Virus record (IMG/VR): IMGVR_UViG_2690315994_000022
Source: a virus
Taxonomy: Duplodnaviria > Heunggongvirae > Uroviricota > Caudoviricetes
DNA length: 6,119 nt
Reading direction: 5' to 3' (one strand)
Below, piece after piece: positions 1-5,843 of the stretch. The translations under genes and the position numbers were made by a program. The notes under the pieces were generated by a model, which was not told the DNA's origin, made no database searches, and saw only the letters and a list, made by a program, of their open reading frames with translations. The stretch's first letter is position 1; every line of letters starts with the position of its first letter.

Positions 1-432
1 TATATTTTCAGTGCCGATAAAAATGCGTTTTTCCCTGTGGAGCTTAAAATCGCTTATCAGGAATCCGGCGAATGGCCCGGTGATGGAATCGAAATTGACG
101 ACACTGTTGCCGCCGAATTTATGAAGGAAGCACCAGAAGGAAAATACAGAGGTGTCATCGACGGAATGCCTACATGGATTGATATTCCACCGCCAACTCA
201 TGAGGAACAAATTGCCGCAGCCGAACTGGAAAAGCAGCAATTGATTAATCAGGTCAACGAATACATAAACAGTAAGCAATGGCCTGGTAAAGCGGCGATT
301 GGTCGCCTGAAAGGTGAGGAACTGGCGCAATATAATTTGTGGCTGGATTATCTGGACGCACTGGAGCTGGTCGATACTTCCGGTGCGCCAGATATTGAAT
401 GGCCTACGCCTCCGGCAGTTCAGGCCAGATGA
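1..432 (+). CDS. tail fibre assembly protein (Tfa/U-type), 5'-truncated by the window edge; inverted partner copy (tfa')
   Basis: Frame 1 is open from base 1 to TGA at 430..432 (the supplied ORF starts at GTG 37 but the frame is open upstream). C-terminus LWLDYLDALELVDTSGAPDIEWPTPP matches the C-terminus of the minus-strand Tfa (AVLDYIDAVTATDTSTAPDVIWPELP), the conserved tail of phage tail-fibre assembly chaperones. Convergent with and overlapping the other tfa by 29 bp. Confidence 0.8.
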   Translation, partial: YIFSADKNAFFPVELKIAYQESGEWPGDGIEIDDTVAAEFMKEAPEGKYRGVIDGMPTWIDIPPPTHEEQIAAAELEKQQLINQVNEYINSKQWPGKAAIGRLKGEELAQYNLWLDYLDALELVDTSGAPDIEWPTPPAVQAR

Positions 433-997
433 CGTCCGGCGCTGTGCTGGTATCTGTTGCCGTCACCGCGTCAATATAATCCAGCACAGCGTTAAGTCGG
501 GTGTTTTCTGGCTGCGTCAGCTTCCGCCCGGCCTGTAATTTCAGTTGAATCAGACTGATGGAAGCCATTGCAGCATCAATCAGCGACTGGCGCTGTGCTT
601 CTGCCGCTTCTACTGCGGCGCTATGCGGTGCCTCGGTATCCGTCACCCATTTCTCACCATCCCATTTATCGTATGGCGTTAACGGTGAAAGCGTGACATA
701 ACCGTCTTTGATGGCACCGATATAATCCACTGTAACAGCTGCGCCATTTTCAGTTGAGTAAACGGTCTCATTGCGATGGTCTTCTTCATGGCTCCATCCC
801 TTACCCGTAAATACAGCCACTTTTCCCGGAATGTTTTCGCTCGGGTCAATACCAGTGGAACAGGCGGGCATACTTACGCCAGTATTAATATATTCATCAG
901 ACCAGCCGGTATATTCATACGTTACTGCATTATAATAAAAACAACGCATATCGCCCGGCACTGTAGCCAGCCCATTTTCATCAAAAACAGGTTTCAT
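404..997 (-). CDS. tail fibre assembly protein (Tfa)
   Basis: 197-aa ORF with ATG at 997..995 sharing one base with the tail-fibre stop (TAATG overlap). Same conserved C-terminal motif as tfa'. Sits directly downstream of the tail-fibre gene, as in Mu S-U, P2 H-G and e14 stf-tfa. Confidence 0.85.
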   Translation of the reverse strand: MKPVFDENGLATVPGDMRCFYYNAVTYEYTGWSDEYINTGVSMPACSTGIDPSENIPGKVAVFTGKGWSHEEDHRNETVYSTENGAAVTVDYIGAIKDGYVTLSPLTPYDKWDGEKWVTDTEAPHSAAVEAAEAQRQSLIDAAMASISLIQLKLQAGRKLTQPENTRLNAVLDYIDAVTATDTSTAPDVIWPELPEA

Positions 998-2100
998 TAT
1001 TTAGCCCTCACCAGAAAGTTAAATGCAATATTTCGTGGACGGGTTTCTGTACCTACATTTCCACTAATTTCACCATAACGTTTAACACTACGAGAGCTAA
1101 GAGCTCGTAGTGAGGAAGGCACCTTAAGACCGGGTTCGTCCGTTTTAACTATTCCCCCGTCACCATATGTAGCCAGTATTCCTGGGTTTACTCCTTCCCG
1201 TGCACTTCCTGCGGCAAGCCCGTCCCCCGTCCACAATTCCATATTGTGTGCATGATCCATAATTGTGTGTGATTGCCCTGAAAGTAGGGTACGTCCGACA
1301 TCAATCCCGCGCCCATCATCCCAGATACGAATGAAATCACCGCGTGCGTCAGGTAATGCCAGCGCCGGAAACACTTTCGCCAGCACAGGGTAATCAGTGG
1401 CAGAGAATTTCGCGCCGTTGAACTTCAAAAACACCATACCGGACCAGCTATCGATTACGGTATCTGGCATTGCAGCGGACGGCCAGAAGAACGGAACGCC
1501 AATAGCTGGAGCTCCTTCTCCCAAACCAAGGTTTTCGAGAGCCGTTTTCACCGTGCCATCCGATTTGATATCACCAAACGGATTCTTGCGGCTCAGGTAT
1601 TCAACAGCAAACCCCGATCCCAGCAATTCAACAAANNNNNNNNNNNNNNNNNNNNNNNNNNNNNNNNNNNNNNNNNNNNNNNNNNNNNNNNNNNNNNNNN
1701 NNNNNNNNNNNNNNNNNNNNNNNNNNNNNNNNNNNNNNNNNNNNNNNNNNNNNNNNAAACCAAGGTTTTCGAGAGCCGTTTTCACCGTGCCATCCGATTT
1801 GATATCACCAAACGGATTCTTGCGGCTCAGGTATTCAACAGCAAACCCCGATCCCAGCAATTCAACAAAACCGGGCAGATCACCATTATCAAGCACATCC
1901 CGTTGCGTTTTATCACTTACAAACTGGGCCAGAGCTGCAGCAATAAAGCTGGCCTGCCGAATAACCTTATTGACTTGCGCACTGGAGGCTTTCCCTGCTG
2001 TAAATCCGGATAAAAGCGCGGGCAACGCTTCCCATTCCTCCTGCGATATAACATTGGCATTTCGATCCGTTGCAAACGCTTTAAAGTCATTTTTCGTCAT
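997..2100 (-). CDS. tail fibre protein: constant N-terminal part plus exchangeable tail-collar-type C-terminal part; length inflated by a scaffold gap and a 234-bp duplication
   Basis: Start preferred at ATG 2100..2098 (MTKNDF...), forming an ATGA overlap with the upstream stop and preceded by GGGGAG about 10 nt away; the supplied ORF start at 2118 has its AGGAG too close. The C-terminal part (...[41 protein letters not shown]...) resembles the phage tail-collar motif. A crossover site lies in frame at 1516..1541. The ORF contains 121 N and a duplicated 78-codon block; the real product is probably about 289 aa. Confidence 0.75.
1516..1541. other. 26-bp gix/hix/cix/pix-type recombination crossover site (site 1) inside the tail-fibre ORF
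   Basis: TTCTCCCAAACC-AA-GGTTTTCGAGAG: two imperfect inverted 12-bp half-sites around a 2-bp core, with the AAACC-NN-GGTTT centre typical of Hin/Gin/Cin/Pin sites. Lies at the junction between the N-terminal and collar-type parts of the tail fibre, and a Pin invertase is encoded in the window. Confidence 0.65.
1523..1635. repeat. 113-bp exact direct repeat, copy A (left of the N gap)
   Basis: Compared base by base with 1757..1869: identical. Starts at the AAACC of crossover site 1 and ends at the first N. Confidence 0.95.
1636..1756. other. run of 121 N: scaffold/assembly gap, not biological sequence
   Basis: Uninterrupted n characters; flanked by identical 113-bp sequence on both sides. 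Confidence 0.98.
1757..1869. repeat. 113-bp exact direct repeat, copy B (right of the N gap)
   Basis: Identical to 1523..1635. The post-gap sequence begins inside the crossover site, at its AAACC. Confidence 0.95.
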
Positions 2101-2780
2101 CAGAGTAATACTCCCCATGCTCCTACATCAAAACCACTGATGAATTCGTTATCCATATCAAAACCAAAAAATTTTGAGCCTTCCGATGGGGTTTCCACCG
2201 AAGGTGTTTCAATGCCACCCGCCCATACCCCGGCGGCTTTTACTGTGAGATACCCCTGTTTAATTGCCGCAATTAACTCACGCGATACATCTGAAATATC
2301 AGTATCAGGAAAGACCCAGACCGATATCGTCATGTCCTGGTTATCGACTATCTGCATTCGCAGCCCGGATCCTGCTGTTGCCGCGTCAAGAATTGCCAGA
2401 AGCGAATCATTCCGTCCGTCCCAGTTATTAATCGCAATCTTCGCTTTAAGAATGACACGATAAGTTTCATCGCTGAGATACATGTATCCTGAATCAGGAT
2501 CGTATGGTCCCTGCCATACCCCCTGATCATATCCAAGCCCGTCGGTATCCCAGCTGAAATAGACACCTGAGATAGGCTGGCTGACAACACGGCTACGTCC
2601 GATCCACAATCCAAGAATGTCAAGTTGCACACCAACCGCAGAGTCAATATCAAATGCAGTAATCAGCCCTCTGGTGGCAGCCGCAACATCAATAAGTGGC
2701 CGGGTCATCAGATCAACATGCGCAAGAAATTTAGGTTTGGTGGCGTGGTAGTTCGTGATTAGTTCGGTGTATTTGCTCAT
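2100..2780 (-). CDS. phage tail/baseplate protein, Mu gp48 / YmfQ-like
   Basis: 226-aa ORF between the baseplate-J-like gene and the tail-fibre gene, the position occupied by Mu gp48, e14 YmfQ and P2 gpI. ATGA overlaps at both ends (2780..2777 and 2102..2098). Family assignment is by position and general resemblance, not a search. Confidence 0.6.
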   Translation of the reverse strand: MSKYTELITNYHATKPKFLAHVDLMTRPLIDVAAATRGLITAFDIDSAVGVQLDILGLWIGRSRVVSQPISGVYFSWDTDGLGYDQGVWQGPYDPDSGYMYLSDETYRVILKAKIAINNWDGRNDSLLAILDAATAGSGLRMQIVDNQDMTISVWVFPDTDISDVSRELIAAIKQGYLTVKAAGVWAGGIETPSVETPSEGSKFFGFDMDNEFISGFDVGAWGVLL

Positions 2781-3976
2781 GACTCCACCGTTATAACGAT
2801 ATTTTCCGGGGTACAGGACACAGATTCGTTGTATCTGATATCAATGTTTGATGACGACAAAGCCCCCGGGGATTTCCCAATCGTCAGTTCCTGAATATCG
2901 TAATAGCGTGCATTCCCGCCACTCACCACGCCAAGATTCGCCGGTGAGTAAATGCGACTTAAAAGGACCGAATCACCAATCATCAGACTATTGATATAGT
3001 CGGAAATAGCCTGCTGGATCTGCTGCCCTATCTGTGAGGTATAACCCGTAAAAACTTGTAATTTGATCCGGGCATAAACAGGCACATCACTGGAACGCGA
3101 GAATTTGATTACATGGGGATTGCCGTATTTATCCGGAACCGTAACGGATGTTGTACCGTGAGTGGCTGTCCCCTGGCCTTTATTTCCTCTGATAGCCTGA
3201 GCAATATCCGTCACATCACCGCCATCCACAATTACAGCAACAGAGTGTGGCGGTAACCCGTTACCGTCCTCCGAACCAGTATCGTTTTCATAGAGTTTGT
3301 GGCGGGTTACACCGGTAACATTAGAAACAGCACCATCCAGTGCTTCAAATGGGGTTATTGATGGCAACGCAACACTTTGCGACTGGCGGATACGTAACTC
3401 CGCATCAGTTTCTGCTGGAGTGCCTACAGTAGCTGCAGCAGGATTGGTTACCGAAACCCAGCCACGGGTTGGCGTATTAATTTCAGTGATAGTTCCAGCC
3501 AGCGCCGCCACTGCACCACTGACGGAACATGTTGCGGTCACCATCACTGTACCATCCACGCCGACCACCACTGAAGCAGGCAAACGCCATATCACATTAT
3601 TACTGTCTTTCACGCTGCCATTAATGATGGTTGTTCCGGCAGTTCCTGTAAGAAGCAAATCAACCGTAGAATTCGTCGCGCCTTTACGTGAAATACCATT
3701 TATTTTCACGTTACTGGTCAGTGCAGCCCCATAGCCGGTTGCCGGTGAAAAACAGTTGTAGACAGTTATCGCCATATTATTGGCATCATGAATCGCCAGC
3801 GCCATCAGAGCCACCATCTGGCCGTCTTTGCTGTCCGGTTCGAGGTAGGCATCACTGCCATAAATCTGCTGAAAATAGCTAATCAGGGTGCTGAGTATCG
3901 TCTGATAATCAGGCGCACTGATCCCCTCCGCGGTTACCTTTGCAGATAAACCGAGAGAATCAAGGTTCAGAGCCAT
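2777..3976 (-). CDS. baseplate J-like protein (Mu gp47 / P2 gpJ family)
   Basis: 399-aa ORF; size, composition and position immediately upstream of the gp48-like and tail-fibre genes fit the baseplate J family. GGAGG lies just upstream of ATG 3976. The stop overlaps the next gene's start (ATGA). Confidence 0.8.
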   Translation of the reverse strand: MALNLDSLGLSAKVTAEGISAPDYQTILSTLISYFQQIYGSDAYLEPDSKDGQMVALMALAIHDANNMAITVYNCFSPATGYGAALTSNVKINGISRKGATNSTVDLLLTGTAGTTIINGSVKDSNNVIWRLPASVVVGVDGTVMVTATCSVSGAVAALAGTITEINTPTRGWVSVTNPAAATVGTPAETDAELRIRQSQSVALPSITPFEALDGAVSNVTGVTRHKLYENDTGSEDGNGLPPHSVAVIVDGGDVTDIAQAIRGNKGQGTATHGTTSVTVPDKYGNPHVIKFSRSSDVPVYARIKLQVFTGYTSQIGQQIQQAISDYINSLMIGDSVLLSRIYSPANLGVVSGGNARYYDIQELTIGKSPGALSSSNIDIRYNESVSCTPENIVITVES

Positions 3977-4141
3977 TACGCCTCCGATGTAACAGTCGTT
4001 ATTCCATAAAGAGTGTCGATTTCAGCGGAAAACATGACACGTCGGGTCGTGGTATCCACCGTCGTATTGAAAGAGAGGATTGATTTAACGCCCNAAACCA
4101 ACGTTTATGAAAATGCAGAAATAACGAGCAAATGGCATCAT
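3976..4141 (-). pseudogene. short ORF or 3' gene remnant upstream of J that reads through crossover site 2; frame depends on the ambiguous base at 4094
   Basis: With the n at 4094 omitted, the minus strand reads MMPFARYFCIFINVGLGVKSILSFNTTVDTTTRRVMFSAEIDTLYGITTVTSEA and stops at TAA 3978..3976, sharing one base with the J start (TAATG). With n kept as a real base the frame stops at 4087..4085. No convincing RBS at its 5' end. Confidence 0.3.
4088..4113. other. second gix/pix-type crossover site (site 2), 55 bp upstream of pin; contains an ambiguous base
   Basis: ACGCCCnAAACC-AA-CGTTTATGAAAA has the same AAACC-AA-(C/G)GTTT centre as site 1. If the n is dropped, the left arm AACGCCCAAACC matches site 1's TTCTCCCAAACC at 9 of 12 positions. 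Its position just upstream of the invertase gene is the canonical one for the invertase-proximal site in Gin/Cin/Pin systems. Confidence 0.55.
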
Positions 4142-4167: not shown

Positions 4168-4722
4168 ATGCTTATTGGCTATGTACGTGTGTCAACAAAT
4201 GACCAGAACACAGATCTACAACGTAATGCGCTGAACTGTGCAGGATGCGAGCTGATTTTTGAAGACAAGATAAGCGGTACAAAGTCCGAAAGGCCGGGAC
4301 TGAAAAAACTGCTCAGGACATTATCGGCAGGTGATACGCTGGTGGTCTGGAAACTGGACCGACTGGGGCGCAGTATGCGGCATCTTGTCGTGCTGGTGGA
4401 GGAGTTGCGCGAACGAGGCATCAACTTTCGTAGTCTGACGGATTCAATTGATACCAGTACCCCAATGGGGCGCTTTTTCTTTCATGTGATGGGTGCCCTG
4501 GCTGAAATGGAACGTGAACTGATTGTTGAACGAACAAAAGCAGGACTGGAAGCTGCTCGCGCACAGGGACGAATTGGGGGACGTCGTCCCAAACTTACAC
4601 CAGAACAATGGGCGCAGGCCGGGCGATTAATTGCATCAGGCGTTCCTCGCCAGAAGGTGGCGATCATCTATGATGTTGGCGTATCGACTTTGTATAAGAA
4701 GTTTCCGGTCGGAGATAAATGA
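4168..4722 (+). CDS. pin: serine DNA invertase of the Pin/Gin/Hin/Cin (Din) family
   Basis: 184-aa product starting MLIGYVRVSTNDQNTDLQRNAL, with the catalytic-serine motif YVRVSTNDQ, the conserved WKLDRLGRS and GALAEMERELI blocks, and a C-terminal helix-turn-helix (VAIIYDVGVSTLYKK). Close to Gin/PinE as remembered. Start chosen at ATG 4168 rather than the supplied ORF's 4132 because of the RBS and family N-terminus. Confidence 0.95.
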   Translation: MLIGYVRVSTNDQNTDLQRNALNCAGCELIFEDKISGTKSERPGLKKLLRTLSAGDTLVVWKLDRLGRSMRHLVVLVEELRERGINFRSLTDSIDTSTPMGRFFFHVMGALAEMERELIVERTKAGLEAARAQGRIGGRRPKLTPEQWAQAGRLIASGVPRQKVAIIYDVGVSTLYKKFPVGDK

Positions 4723-5027
4723 AACCGTAGCACGTCGTATGCAAGAACGTGCCACGGCTGGCTGATGGACGTTCGATAGCGCGAGTTTGAATGAAAATCA
4801 GCCGGAGATGATTTTACATAATTGCTACGGAATTATTCAATACAGGAATTGCTTGTGTATGCATGGATTGACCTGAAATATTCCCGAAAATTTCTCTAAA
4901 AAACTCGAAAAAAATGGTAACTAATTGAATGTATTAATATGTAATAGTACGTGTTAGAGATTAAAAGATGAGCATAAATTTATTTAACACATTAATTCTA
5001 AAAGATTTTGTTGTTTGTTGACGAAAA

Positions 5028-5052
5028 CAGGAATCGTGTTCGGTCTCTTTTT
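5028..5052 (+). ncRNA. sdsR: probable 3'-terminal fragment of sRNA SdsR (RyeB), i.e. candidate prophage attachment-site core
   Basis: CAGGAATCGTGTTCGGTCTCTTTTT matches, with one mismatch, what I recall as the SdsR terminator 3' half (..CAGGAAUCGUAUUCGGUCUCUUUUU). The upstream arm of the terminator stem is not complementary here, so only the 3' part is present. From memory, not searched. Confidence 0.35.
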
Positions 5053-5171
5053 ATCTGTTAAAAGCCAGAAGCATTTCCTTCGCTGACTTTATAGTCAACC
5101 ATAACACACACTCTACTGTCTGAGTCCAGCGTTTTTTAACATTCTTGTTAAGATTATGTGATCTTTAGCGC

Positions 5172-5177
5172 GGGAGG
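5172..5177 (+). promoter_or_regulatory. Shine-Dalgarno sequence for pphA
   Basis: GGGAGG, 9 nt upstream of ATG 5187. Confidence 0.5.
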
Positions 5178-5186
5178 AAAATATTG

Positions 5187-5843
5187 ATGAAACAGCCTGC
5201 GCCCGTTTATCAGAGAATTGCGGGTCATCAATGGCGACATATCTGGCTTTCTGGCGATATACACGGTTGTCTTGAGCAGTTGCGCCGCAAATTATGGCAT
5301 TGTCGTTTTGATCCGTGGCGAGATTTACTTATCTCAGTGGGAGACGTTATCGATCGTGGGCCGCAAAGTTTACGTTGTCTGCAGTTACTGGAACAACATT
5401 GGGTTCGTGCGGTAAGAGGCAATCATGAACAGATGGCGATGGATGCGCTGGCATCCCAGCAGATGTCTTTGTGGTTGATGAATGGCGGCGACTGGTTTAT
5501 TGCGCTGGCAGATAATCAACAGAAACAAGCGAAAACGGCGCTGGAAAAATGTCAGCATTTGCCCTTTATTCTTGAAGTACACAGCCGCACCGGCAAACAT
5601 GTTATTGCTCATGCCGATTATCCAGATGATGTTTATGAATGGCAAAAGGACGTTGATTTGCATCAGGTCTTGTGGAGCCGCTCGCGATTAAGTGAACGCC
5701 AAAAAGGGCAGGGAATTACAGGTGCTGATCATTTCTGGTTTGGTCATACACCGTTGCGCCATCGCGTGGATATTGGCAACCTGCATTATATTGATACCGG
5801 CGCTGTCTTTGGGGGCGAACTGACTTTCGTGCAATTGCAATAA
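5187..5843 (+). CDS. pphA: serine/threonine protein phosphatase 1 (PPP-family metallophosphatase)
   Basis: 218-aa product MKQPAPVYQRIAGHQWRHIWLSGDIHGC... with the metallophosphatase motifs GDIHG, GDVIDRG and GNHE; recognised as E. coli PphA/PrpA. Start at ATG 5187 (the supplied ORF begins at TTG 5184). Confidence 0.9.
   Translation: MKQPAPVYQRIAGHQWRHIWLSGDIHGCLEQLRRKLWHCRFDPWRDLLISVGDVIDRGPQSLRCLQLLEQHWVRAVRGNHEQMAMDALASQQMSLWLMNGGDWFIALADNQQKQAKTALEKCQHLPFILEVHSRTGKHVIAHADYPDDVYEWQKDVDLHQVLWSRSRLSERQKGQGITGADHFWFGHTPLRHRVDIGNLHYIDTGAVFGGELTFVQLQ

Follow-up and report, generated by a model that had tools for sequence, protein, structure and literature searches.

A tail-fibre crossover site matching that of the e14 Pin invertase in a myovirus-like prophage beside pphA

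Known inversion systems and the site in the window

The DNA invertases Gin, Cin, Hin and Pin operate in a common way: their dimers bind both crossover sites, a Fis-bound enhancer is engaged, each site is cleaved at a 2-bp core, and the ends are exchanged by subunit rotation. The Hin/hix flagellar switch of Salmonella belongs to the same serine-invertase family and has the same 26-bp site design, but it flips a promoter, unlike the swap of 3′ coding sequence considered here. In the G segment of Mu (Gin) and the C segment of P1 (Cin), which belong to the same mechanism class, the site lies in frame at the junction of Sc and Sv, and the invertase gene adjoins the segment and contains an internal enhancer. 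The closest described system is the P segment of the K-12 prophage e14 (stfP-tfaP-tfaE-stfE-pinE), whose inversion by PinE has been documented repeatedly (PMC4272514; PMC12529663). Its repeats have been reported as CCTTCTCCCAAACCAA, and a 2025 paper found that StfE2, the product of a chimeric e14 ORF formed upon inversion, blocks adsorption of phage T2 (PMC12529663).

We analyzed a stretch of 6,119 nucleotides (the window) from the viral record IMGVR_UViG_2690315994_000022 and laid out its features from an ORF listing, Pfam matches and comparison with complete E. coli genomes (Table 1). This layout marks the element as a myovirus-like prophage, seen at its tail end, that has integrated beside pphA. 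A sequence-only reading of the window had placed a 26-bp crossover site at positions 1516-1541, at the constant/variable junction of the minus-strand tail-fibre ORF, in an architecture that would let an invertase exchange receptor-binding domains. The 26-mer, TTCTCCCAAACCAAGGTTTTCGAGAG, lies exactly there. Its two 12-nt halves are symmetric at 9/12 positions around a central AA, and a match with three or fewer mismatches arose in none of 200 shuffles.

Table 1 Features of the window.
Feature	Position	Strand	Remarks
tfa2′, chaperone gene that goes with the other cassette (silent at present)	1-432	+	5′ end cut by the window edge; Caudo_TAP, E = 6.2e-34; 98% to DEC5B Tfa2, 56% to e14 TfaP
tfa1, tail-fibre assembly chaperone gene paired with V1	404-997	-	Caudo_TAP, E = 4.7e-27; 61% to e14 TfaE
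Tail-fibre gene	997-2118	-	
Variable C-terminal cassette V1	997-1515	-	172 codons; now fused to the constant part; 99.4% to the silent DEC5B cassette, 42% to e14 StfE
Crossover site A (pix-type)	1516-1541	-	In frame, tail-fibre codons 115-123 (ALENLGLGE); e14 stfP counterpart at L002 2779-2804
Site A, variable-side half			TTCTCCCAAACC
Site A, core	1528-1529		AA
Site A, constant-side half			GGTTTTCGAGAG
Constant N-terminal part of the tail-fibre gene	1542-2118	-	114 codons after repair; counterparts in DEC5E, DEC5B and L006-L018 match at 99-100%
Assembly artefact	1636-1869	.	N run at 1636-1756, then the repeat (1757-1869) of the 113 nt by which two contigs overlap; site position 8 is the first base of the second contig
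DUF2612 wedge protein gene	2100-2780	-	
Baseplate J protein gene	2777-3976	-	
Fragment (~118 nt) of the next baseplate gene (W, sheath initiator)	3976 to about 4093	-	
Right 19 nt of the pin-proximal crossover site	4095-4113	+	AAACCAACGTTTATGAAAA; left 7 nt replaced by 'n' (4094) and the baseplate-gene fragment
pin, serine DNA invertase gene	4168-4722	+	184 aa; N-terminus MLIGYVRVSTNDQ with conserved serine; Resolvase and HTH_7
Segment homologous to the P1 cin recombinational enhancer	4186-4257	+	Nucleotides 19-90 of the gene; 70/72 to e14 pinE, 55/72 to the annotated P1 enhancer
Host phosphatase gene pphA	5184-5843	+	

We then scanned reference loci with annotated inversion systems, taking the pix reference sequences from the K-12 genome itself and from PMC12529663. 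The site proved identical at 26/26 positions to the site inside stfP of e14, and the published e14 repeats were recovered at window positions 1514-1529. Agreement was 20/26 with each of P1 cixL and cixR and 18/26 with Mu gix. Against what we take to be the sequence of hixL, it was 20/26. The aligned invertase sites share the core AAACCnnGGTTT, and the reading frame through them is also common, giving ALENLGLGE here, IQNLGLQE in Mu S and IQYLGLRE in P1 S. The alignment proposed by the sequence-only reading thus identifies 1516-1541 as the known crossover site of the E. coli e14-type Pin DNA invertase, a real but ordinary one.

The likeness to e14 extends well beyond this site. Both crossover sites agree at 26/26 positions between e14 and the prophage family of the window, the pin-proximal one as judged from relatives; Pin is 97% identical to PinE, and the elements follow the same order, namely constant part, site, V cassette, two convergent tfa genes, second V cassette, site and pin. 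The two tfa genes of the window overlap at their 3′ ends by 29 nt (404-432), exactly like e14 tfaP and tfaE (L002 3518-3546). The systems differ in their fibres, in that the constant N-terminus of e14 is unrelated to that of the window save for aa 98-125 and V1 shares only 42% identity with StfE; between the chaperones, identity is 56-61%. They also differ in their surroundings: e14 is a lambdoid remnant at icd, whereas the backbone here is myovirus-like, with a full baseplate module (DUF2612 wedge, baseplate J and sheath initiator), and lies beside pphA. The Mu and P1 systems have the same architecture as that of the window, and Pin is 79% identical to Gin and 84% to Cin, but their segments measure ~3.1 kb (Mu) and ~4.3 kb (P1) as against ~1.8-1.9 kb in relatives of the window, and their fibres are dissimilar. 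By these comparisons, we identify the system as the known Hin/Gin/Cin/Pin host-range switch, of the e14 P-segment/Pin type and already described as such, on a different prophage backbone.

The invertase gene itself is intact, and its product carries a Resolvase domain (PF00239, E = 1.5e-51) followed by a C-terminal HTH_7 domain (PF02796, E = 3.5e-14). The segment near its 5′ end that is homologous to the P1 cin enhancer may act as an enhancer by analogy, with the proviso that it is coding sequence, in which conservation alone is no proof of function. A promoter and terminator scan around pin returned nothing above shuffle expectation. Just downstream of the tfa overlap, we noted an imperfect inverted repeat (440-462 / 469-491).

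Constant and variable parts of the tail-fibre gene

The tail-fibre ORF is broken by a run of 121 Ns at 1636-1756, on both sides of which stands an exact 113-nt duplication (1523-1635 = 1757-1869). In strain DEC5E, the same sequence is continuous and free of the duplication, and its matches to the two sides of the gap (H19 and H28) overlap by exactly 113 nt. On this ground, we identify the gap and the duplication as two overlapping contig ends that were left unmerged, with no real duplication in the fibre gene; a partial second copy of the site at 1757-1775 is likewise part of the duplicated contig end. Gap and duplicate together come to 234 nt, which is divisible by three, so that the ORF remains open across the artefact but is inflated to 373 aa.

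Once repaired, the window is collinear with the DEC5E locus (L001) across the former gap. The repaired gene encodes 295 aa, with 114 codons before the site and 172 after it, and the start annotated in relatives lies six codons further in than that of the ORF. The figure of about 186 N-terminal codons given by the sequence-only reading, nominally with the duplication removed, was therefore a miscount, while its estimate of about 173 codons for the C-terminal part was nearly exact. That reading had also called the C-terminal part collar-type. For the window protein itself, the Collar match is weak (PF07484, E = 0.0037, 17.6 bits, under the 24-bit cut-off), and the label draws its support from homologous cassettes, whose precomputed Pfam matches include Collar.

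In both nucleotide and protein comparisons, the site is where the likeness to other fibres breaks off or sets in. Megablast matches to the variable side stop at query positions 1532-1540 in most genomes. The DEC5B fibre, which has the same constant part and another cassette, is 99% identical over aa 7-125, where the match stops; the silent DEC5B cassette adjoining pin is 99.4% identical over aa 118-295. From e14, StfP matches the window fibre only at aa 98-125 (96%), StfE matches over aa 118-294 (42%), and the sole DNA common to the window and e14 stfP is an 83-nt patch around the site (96%). Mu S and P1 S, which had also been suggested for this alignment, showed no BLASTP similarity to the window fibre at E ≤ 1e-3. 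The expected break at the site was thus borne out by the DEC5B fibre and cassette, StfP and StfE.

Both possible fusions exist as open reading frames. The constant part continues into V1 in the window and in DEC5E (289 aa), and into a second cassette, V2, in DEC5B (231 aa) and in L006, a relative at the pphA locus. The V2 cassette of the window and its half-site lie beyond the left window edge; judging from the DEC5B locus (L003), they should stand ~360-380 nt outside it.

Inversion isomers and the proposed switch

To survey the orientation of the segment, we searched 5426 complete E. coli genomes with two probes, one of 426 nt that runs from V1 through the site into the constant part and one that runs from V1 through the site into pin, and required full coverage of the probe. 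V1 was joined to the constant part in 156/5426 genomes and to pin in 249/5426. Opposite states occurred between two assemblies of EDL933, between the related isolates TT12A and TT12B, and, at the same chromosomal locus as the window, between two prophages beside pphA (L006 and L007). Inversion isomers, whose absence from the reads was to count against the sequence-only reading, are present in related genomes.

Comparison of a pair of loci beside pphA whose Pin is identical to that of the window (L015 and L016) located the end-points of inversion. Their flanks are 99.9% collinear, and the internal 1827 nt are inverted at 99.8% identity. The variable-side half-sites, which differ between the two ends of the segment (TTCCCCC and TTCTCCC), trade partners, while the fixed halves stay put, GGTTTTCGAGAG with the constant part and CGTTTATGAAAA with pin. 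The exchange is therefore confined to the interval from site position 4 to site position 15, as cleavage at the central AA would allow. Two further pairs beside pphA, L010/L011 and L012/L014, behaved alike. Every related complete locus examined contained two complete inverted sites, spaced 1815-1902 bp apart, and the pin-proximal site TTCTCCCAAACCAACGTTTATGAAAA is intact in e14, L001, L003 and L006-L018.

Strain AR-0428 has the V1-constant junction on the chromosome (NZ_CP044145.1) and the V1-pin junction on a separate 46.9-kb record (NZ_CP044147.1; matches H132 and H165). The prophage may have been excised or duplicated there and be present in the other orientation as well, or inversion may have split the assembly.

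Position 1516-1541 is very probably one of two crossover sites of an e14-type (Pin) inversion switch on the myovirus-like prophage beside pphA. The identity of the site, the in-frame mosaic joint, the intact pin gene, the open fusion ORFs in both states and the isomers of relatives, with their end-points inside the site, all support this assignment directly, and they bear out the swap architecture that the sequence-only reading had proposed. In the mechanism that we propose, Pin dimers would bind site A and its partner beside pin, which in intact relatives lies ~1.8-1.9 kb away in inverted orientation. With the enhancer within the 5′ part of pin and with host Fis, an invertasome would assemble, in which Pin would cut both sites at the central AA and exchange the ends. 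Subunit rotation would then invert the segment, composed of two convergent cassettes, V1-tfa1 and V2-tfa2. The site lies in frame, and its peptide is identical in the two states; the 114 constant N-terminal codons could therefore run on into V1, as in the window, or into V2, and the receptor-binding end would change together with its matching chaperone. Dependence on Fis and the enhancer, cleavage at the core and the consequence for host range are carried over from the biology of Mu, P1 and e14.

The switch might instead be selected chiefly for defense of the host, with the ORF beside pin yielding a chimeric, adsorption-blocking product on inversion. The start of this ORF, MMPFARYFCIFINVGLGE, is found on the minus strand at 4114-4140 of the window and is kept in relatives, where the ORF (L003 5503-6072; L001 7093-7467) is a RefSeq CDS that crosses the pin-proximal site and continues into the 'silent' cassette, like stfE in e14; it is an annotated CDS in DEC5B, DEC5E and L006. 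Inversion of the e14 P segment is reported to yield the T2-blocking StfE2 (PMC12529663). Unlike e14, however, the prophage here keeps a complete tail and baseplate module, which leaves the classical host-range role fully available, and in the window as assembled the pin-proximal ORF stops right after the junction. We therefore regard defense as the chief selective force as improbable, and a role of this kind would in any case be compatible with the Pin inversion switch rather than opposed to it.

The junction at 4094 and the distribution of the cassette

The inversion switch requires a second, inverted site, and the window as assembled contains no intact one. The only other site-like sequence, at 4088-4113, lacks the left 7 nt, and the part that remains lies in direct orientation to site A. 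The 'n' at 4094 links the W fragment to this remnant, so that pin stands across the baseplate genes from its usual place. Taking DEC5E as the reference, the window is made up of L001 7606-11337 and, after it, L001 7142-5115 reverse-complemented. The join between W and pin occurred in 0/5426 complete E. coli genomes and in 0/10 loci with an identical Pin protein, and exact-pattern scans of the genome_contigs and metagenome_contigs collections found none.

The first base of each contig that carries a fixed arm (1757 and 4095) is exactly site position 8. The preceding position, 7, differs between the two cassettes of the closest relatives (L003 and L006), with C beside V1 and T beside V2. A de Bruijn graph would branch exactly there if the reads came from both isomers or from a pair of related prophage copies, and the 113-nt overlap is in line with a shared k-mer node. 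The join between W and pin is probably a scaffolding artefact at such branch points. We infer that the gap, the duplication and this join are all assembly consequences of an invertible or repeated segment, and that the real partner of site A would be the inverted pin-proximal site. The three features would accordingly stand as a warning against reading the effects of assembly as biology.

Two other origins of the join were considered and rejected. W in relatives (…CGCCCCGCGTTTCGAGG) contains no AAACC half-site at that point, so the join is not a Pin crossover; with the join 5-6 nt off the core, a crossover at a quasi-site finds no support either. A natural mosaic boundary in W as the cause of the contig end at 4093 was discarded because similarity among the compared prophage types continues far beyond it.

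A combined account would accept the junction of W and pin as real, a rearrangement having moved pin and its half-site past the baseplate genes and left the sites in direct orientation, and would separately have the pin-adjacent ORF make the switch an anti-phage device of the StfE2 type, beyond host range; we give it little credence. Improbable, too, is that the site is a dead relic, in which a real rearrangement joined the W fragment to a cut pin-proximal site and, with both sites direct, locked the fibre in the V1 state. This is the literal arrangement of the window, and a CC(C) microhomology between the W sequence and the site at 4091-4093 is in keeping with it. Yet the join is absent from the complete genomes, the loci with identical Pin and the two contig collections searched, the 'n' sits exactly at the junction, and the position 7 difference between the V1 and V2 sides of the closest relatives is what a graph branch would give. 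Moreover, the join falls at site position 7/8 and not at the core, which argues against a Pin crossover, and the other contig boundary, at 1757, falls at the same site position. Finally, that the 26-mer is a chance or purely coding palindrome, kept only for the fibre motif ENLGLGE and devoid of a recombination role, is scarcely credible: an xNLGLxE motif is indeed kept at the protein level across several fibre families, but the nucleotides are identical to e14 throughout while the flanking fibre sequences are unrelated, one side of the pin-proximal partner site is non-coding, and the natural isomer pairs, with inversion end-points inside the site, already contradict it.

For the Pin inversion switch, the practical meaning is modest. 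The tail-fibre gene can be marked as phase-variable, which has little import beyond annotation, and a phase-variable fibre would explain the breaks in draft assemblies and the 'hypothetical' labels that automated annotation gives to fibre pieces. The presence of both states in hundreds of E. coli genomes shows that the cassette is portable, and the pix/Pin module was found on at least three backbones, namely e14, the pphA prophage and the yfhH/tadA prophage.

Cassettes with near-identical sites were observed on several prophage backbones or loci, including that of DEC5B at yfhH/tadA (L003), L013, which has a Mu-like gp45-gp48 baseplate, and the Sp1 region of Sakai (H106). Some genomes hold two copies of the cassette, in which the Pin of one prophage may act on the segment of another.

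The closest 'phage' records to the baseplate module (98.9%) are vB_EcoM-606R2 (L019, ON470579.1) and others. The vB_EcoM-606R2 record includes the host genes tadA, yfhB and yfhH and a truncated invertase CDS. We rejected records of this type as proof of an active phage, since with host genes inside they look like predicted prophage regions and not packaged genomes.

Between pin and pphA lies an AT-rich, gene-free stretch of 460 nt (4723-5183); an Rfam scan of the window, this stretch included, returned no matches. The stretch is present in all genomes that carry this prophage, and the boundary between prophage and host should lie inside it.
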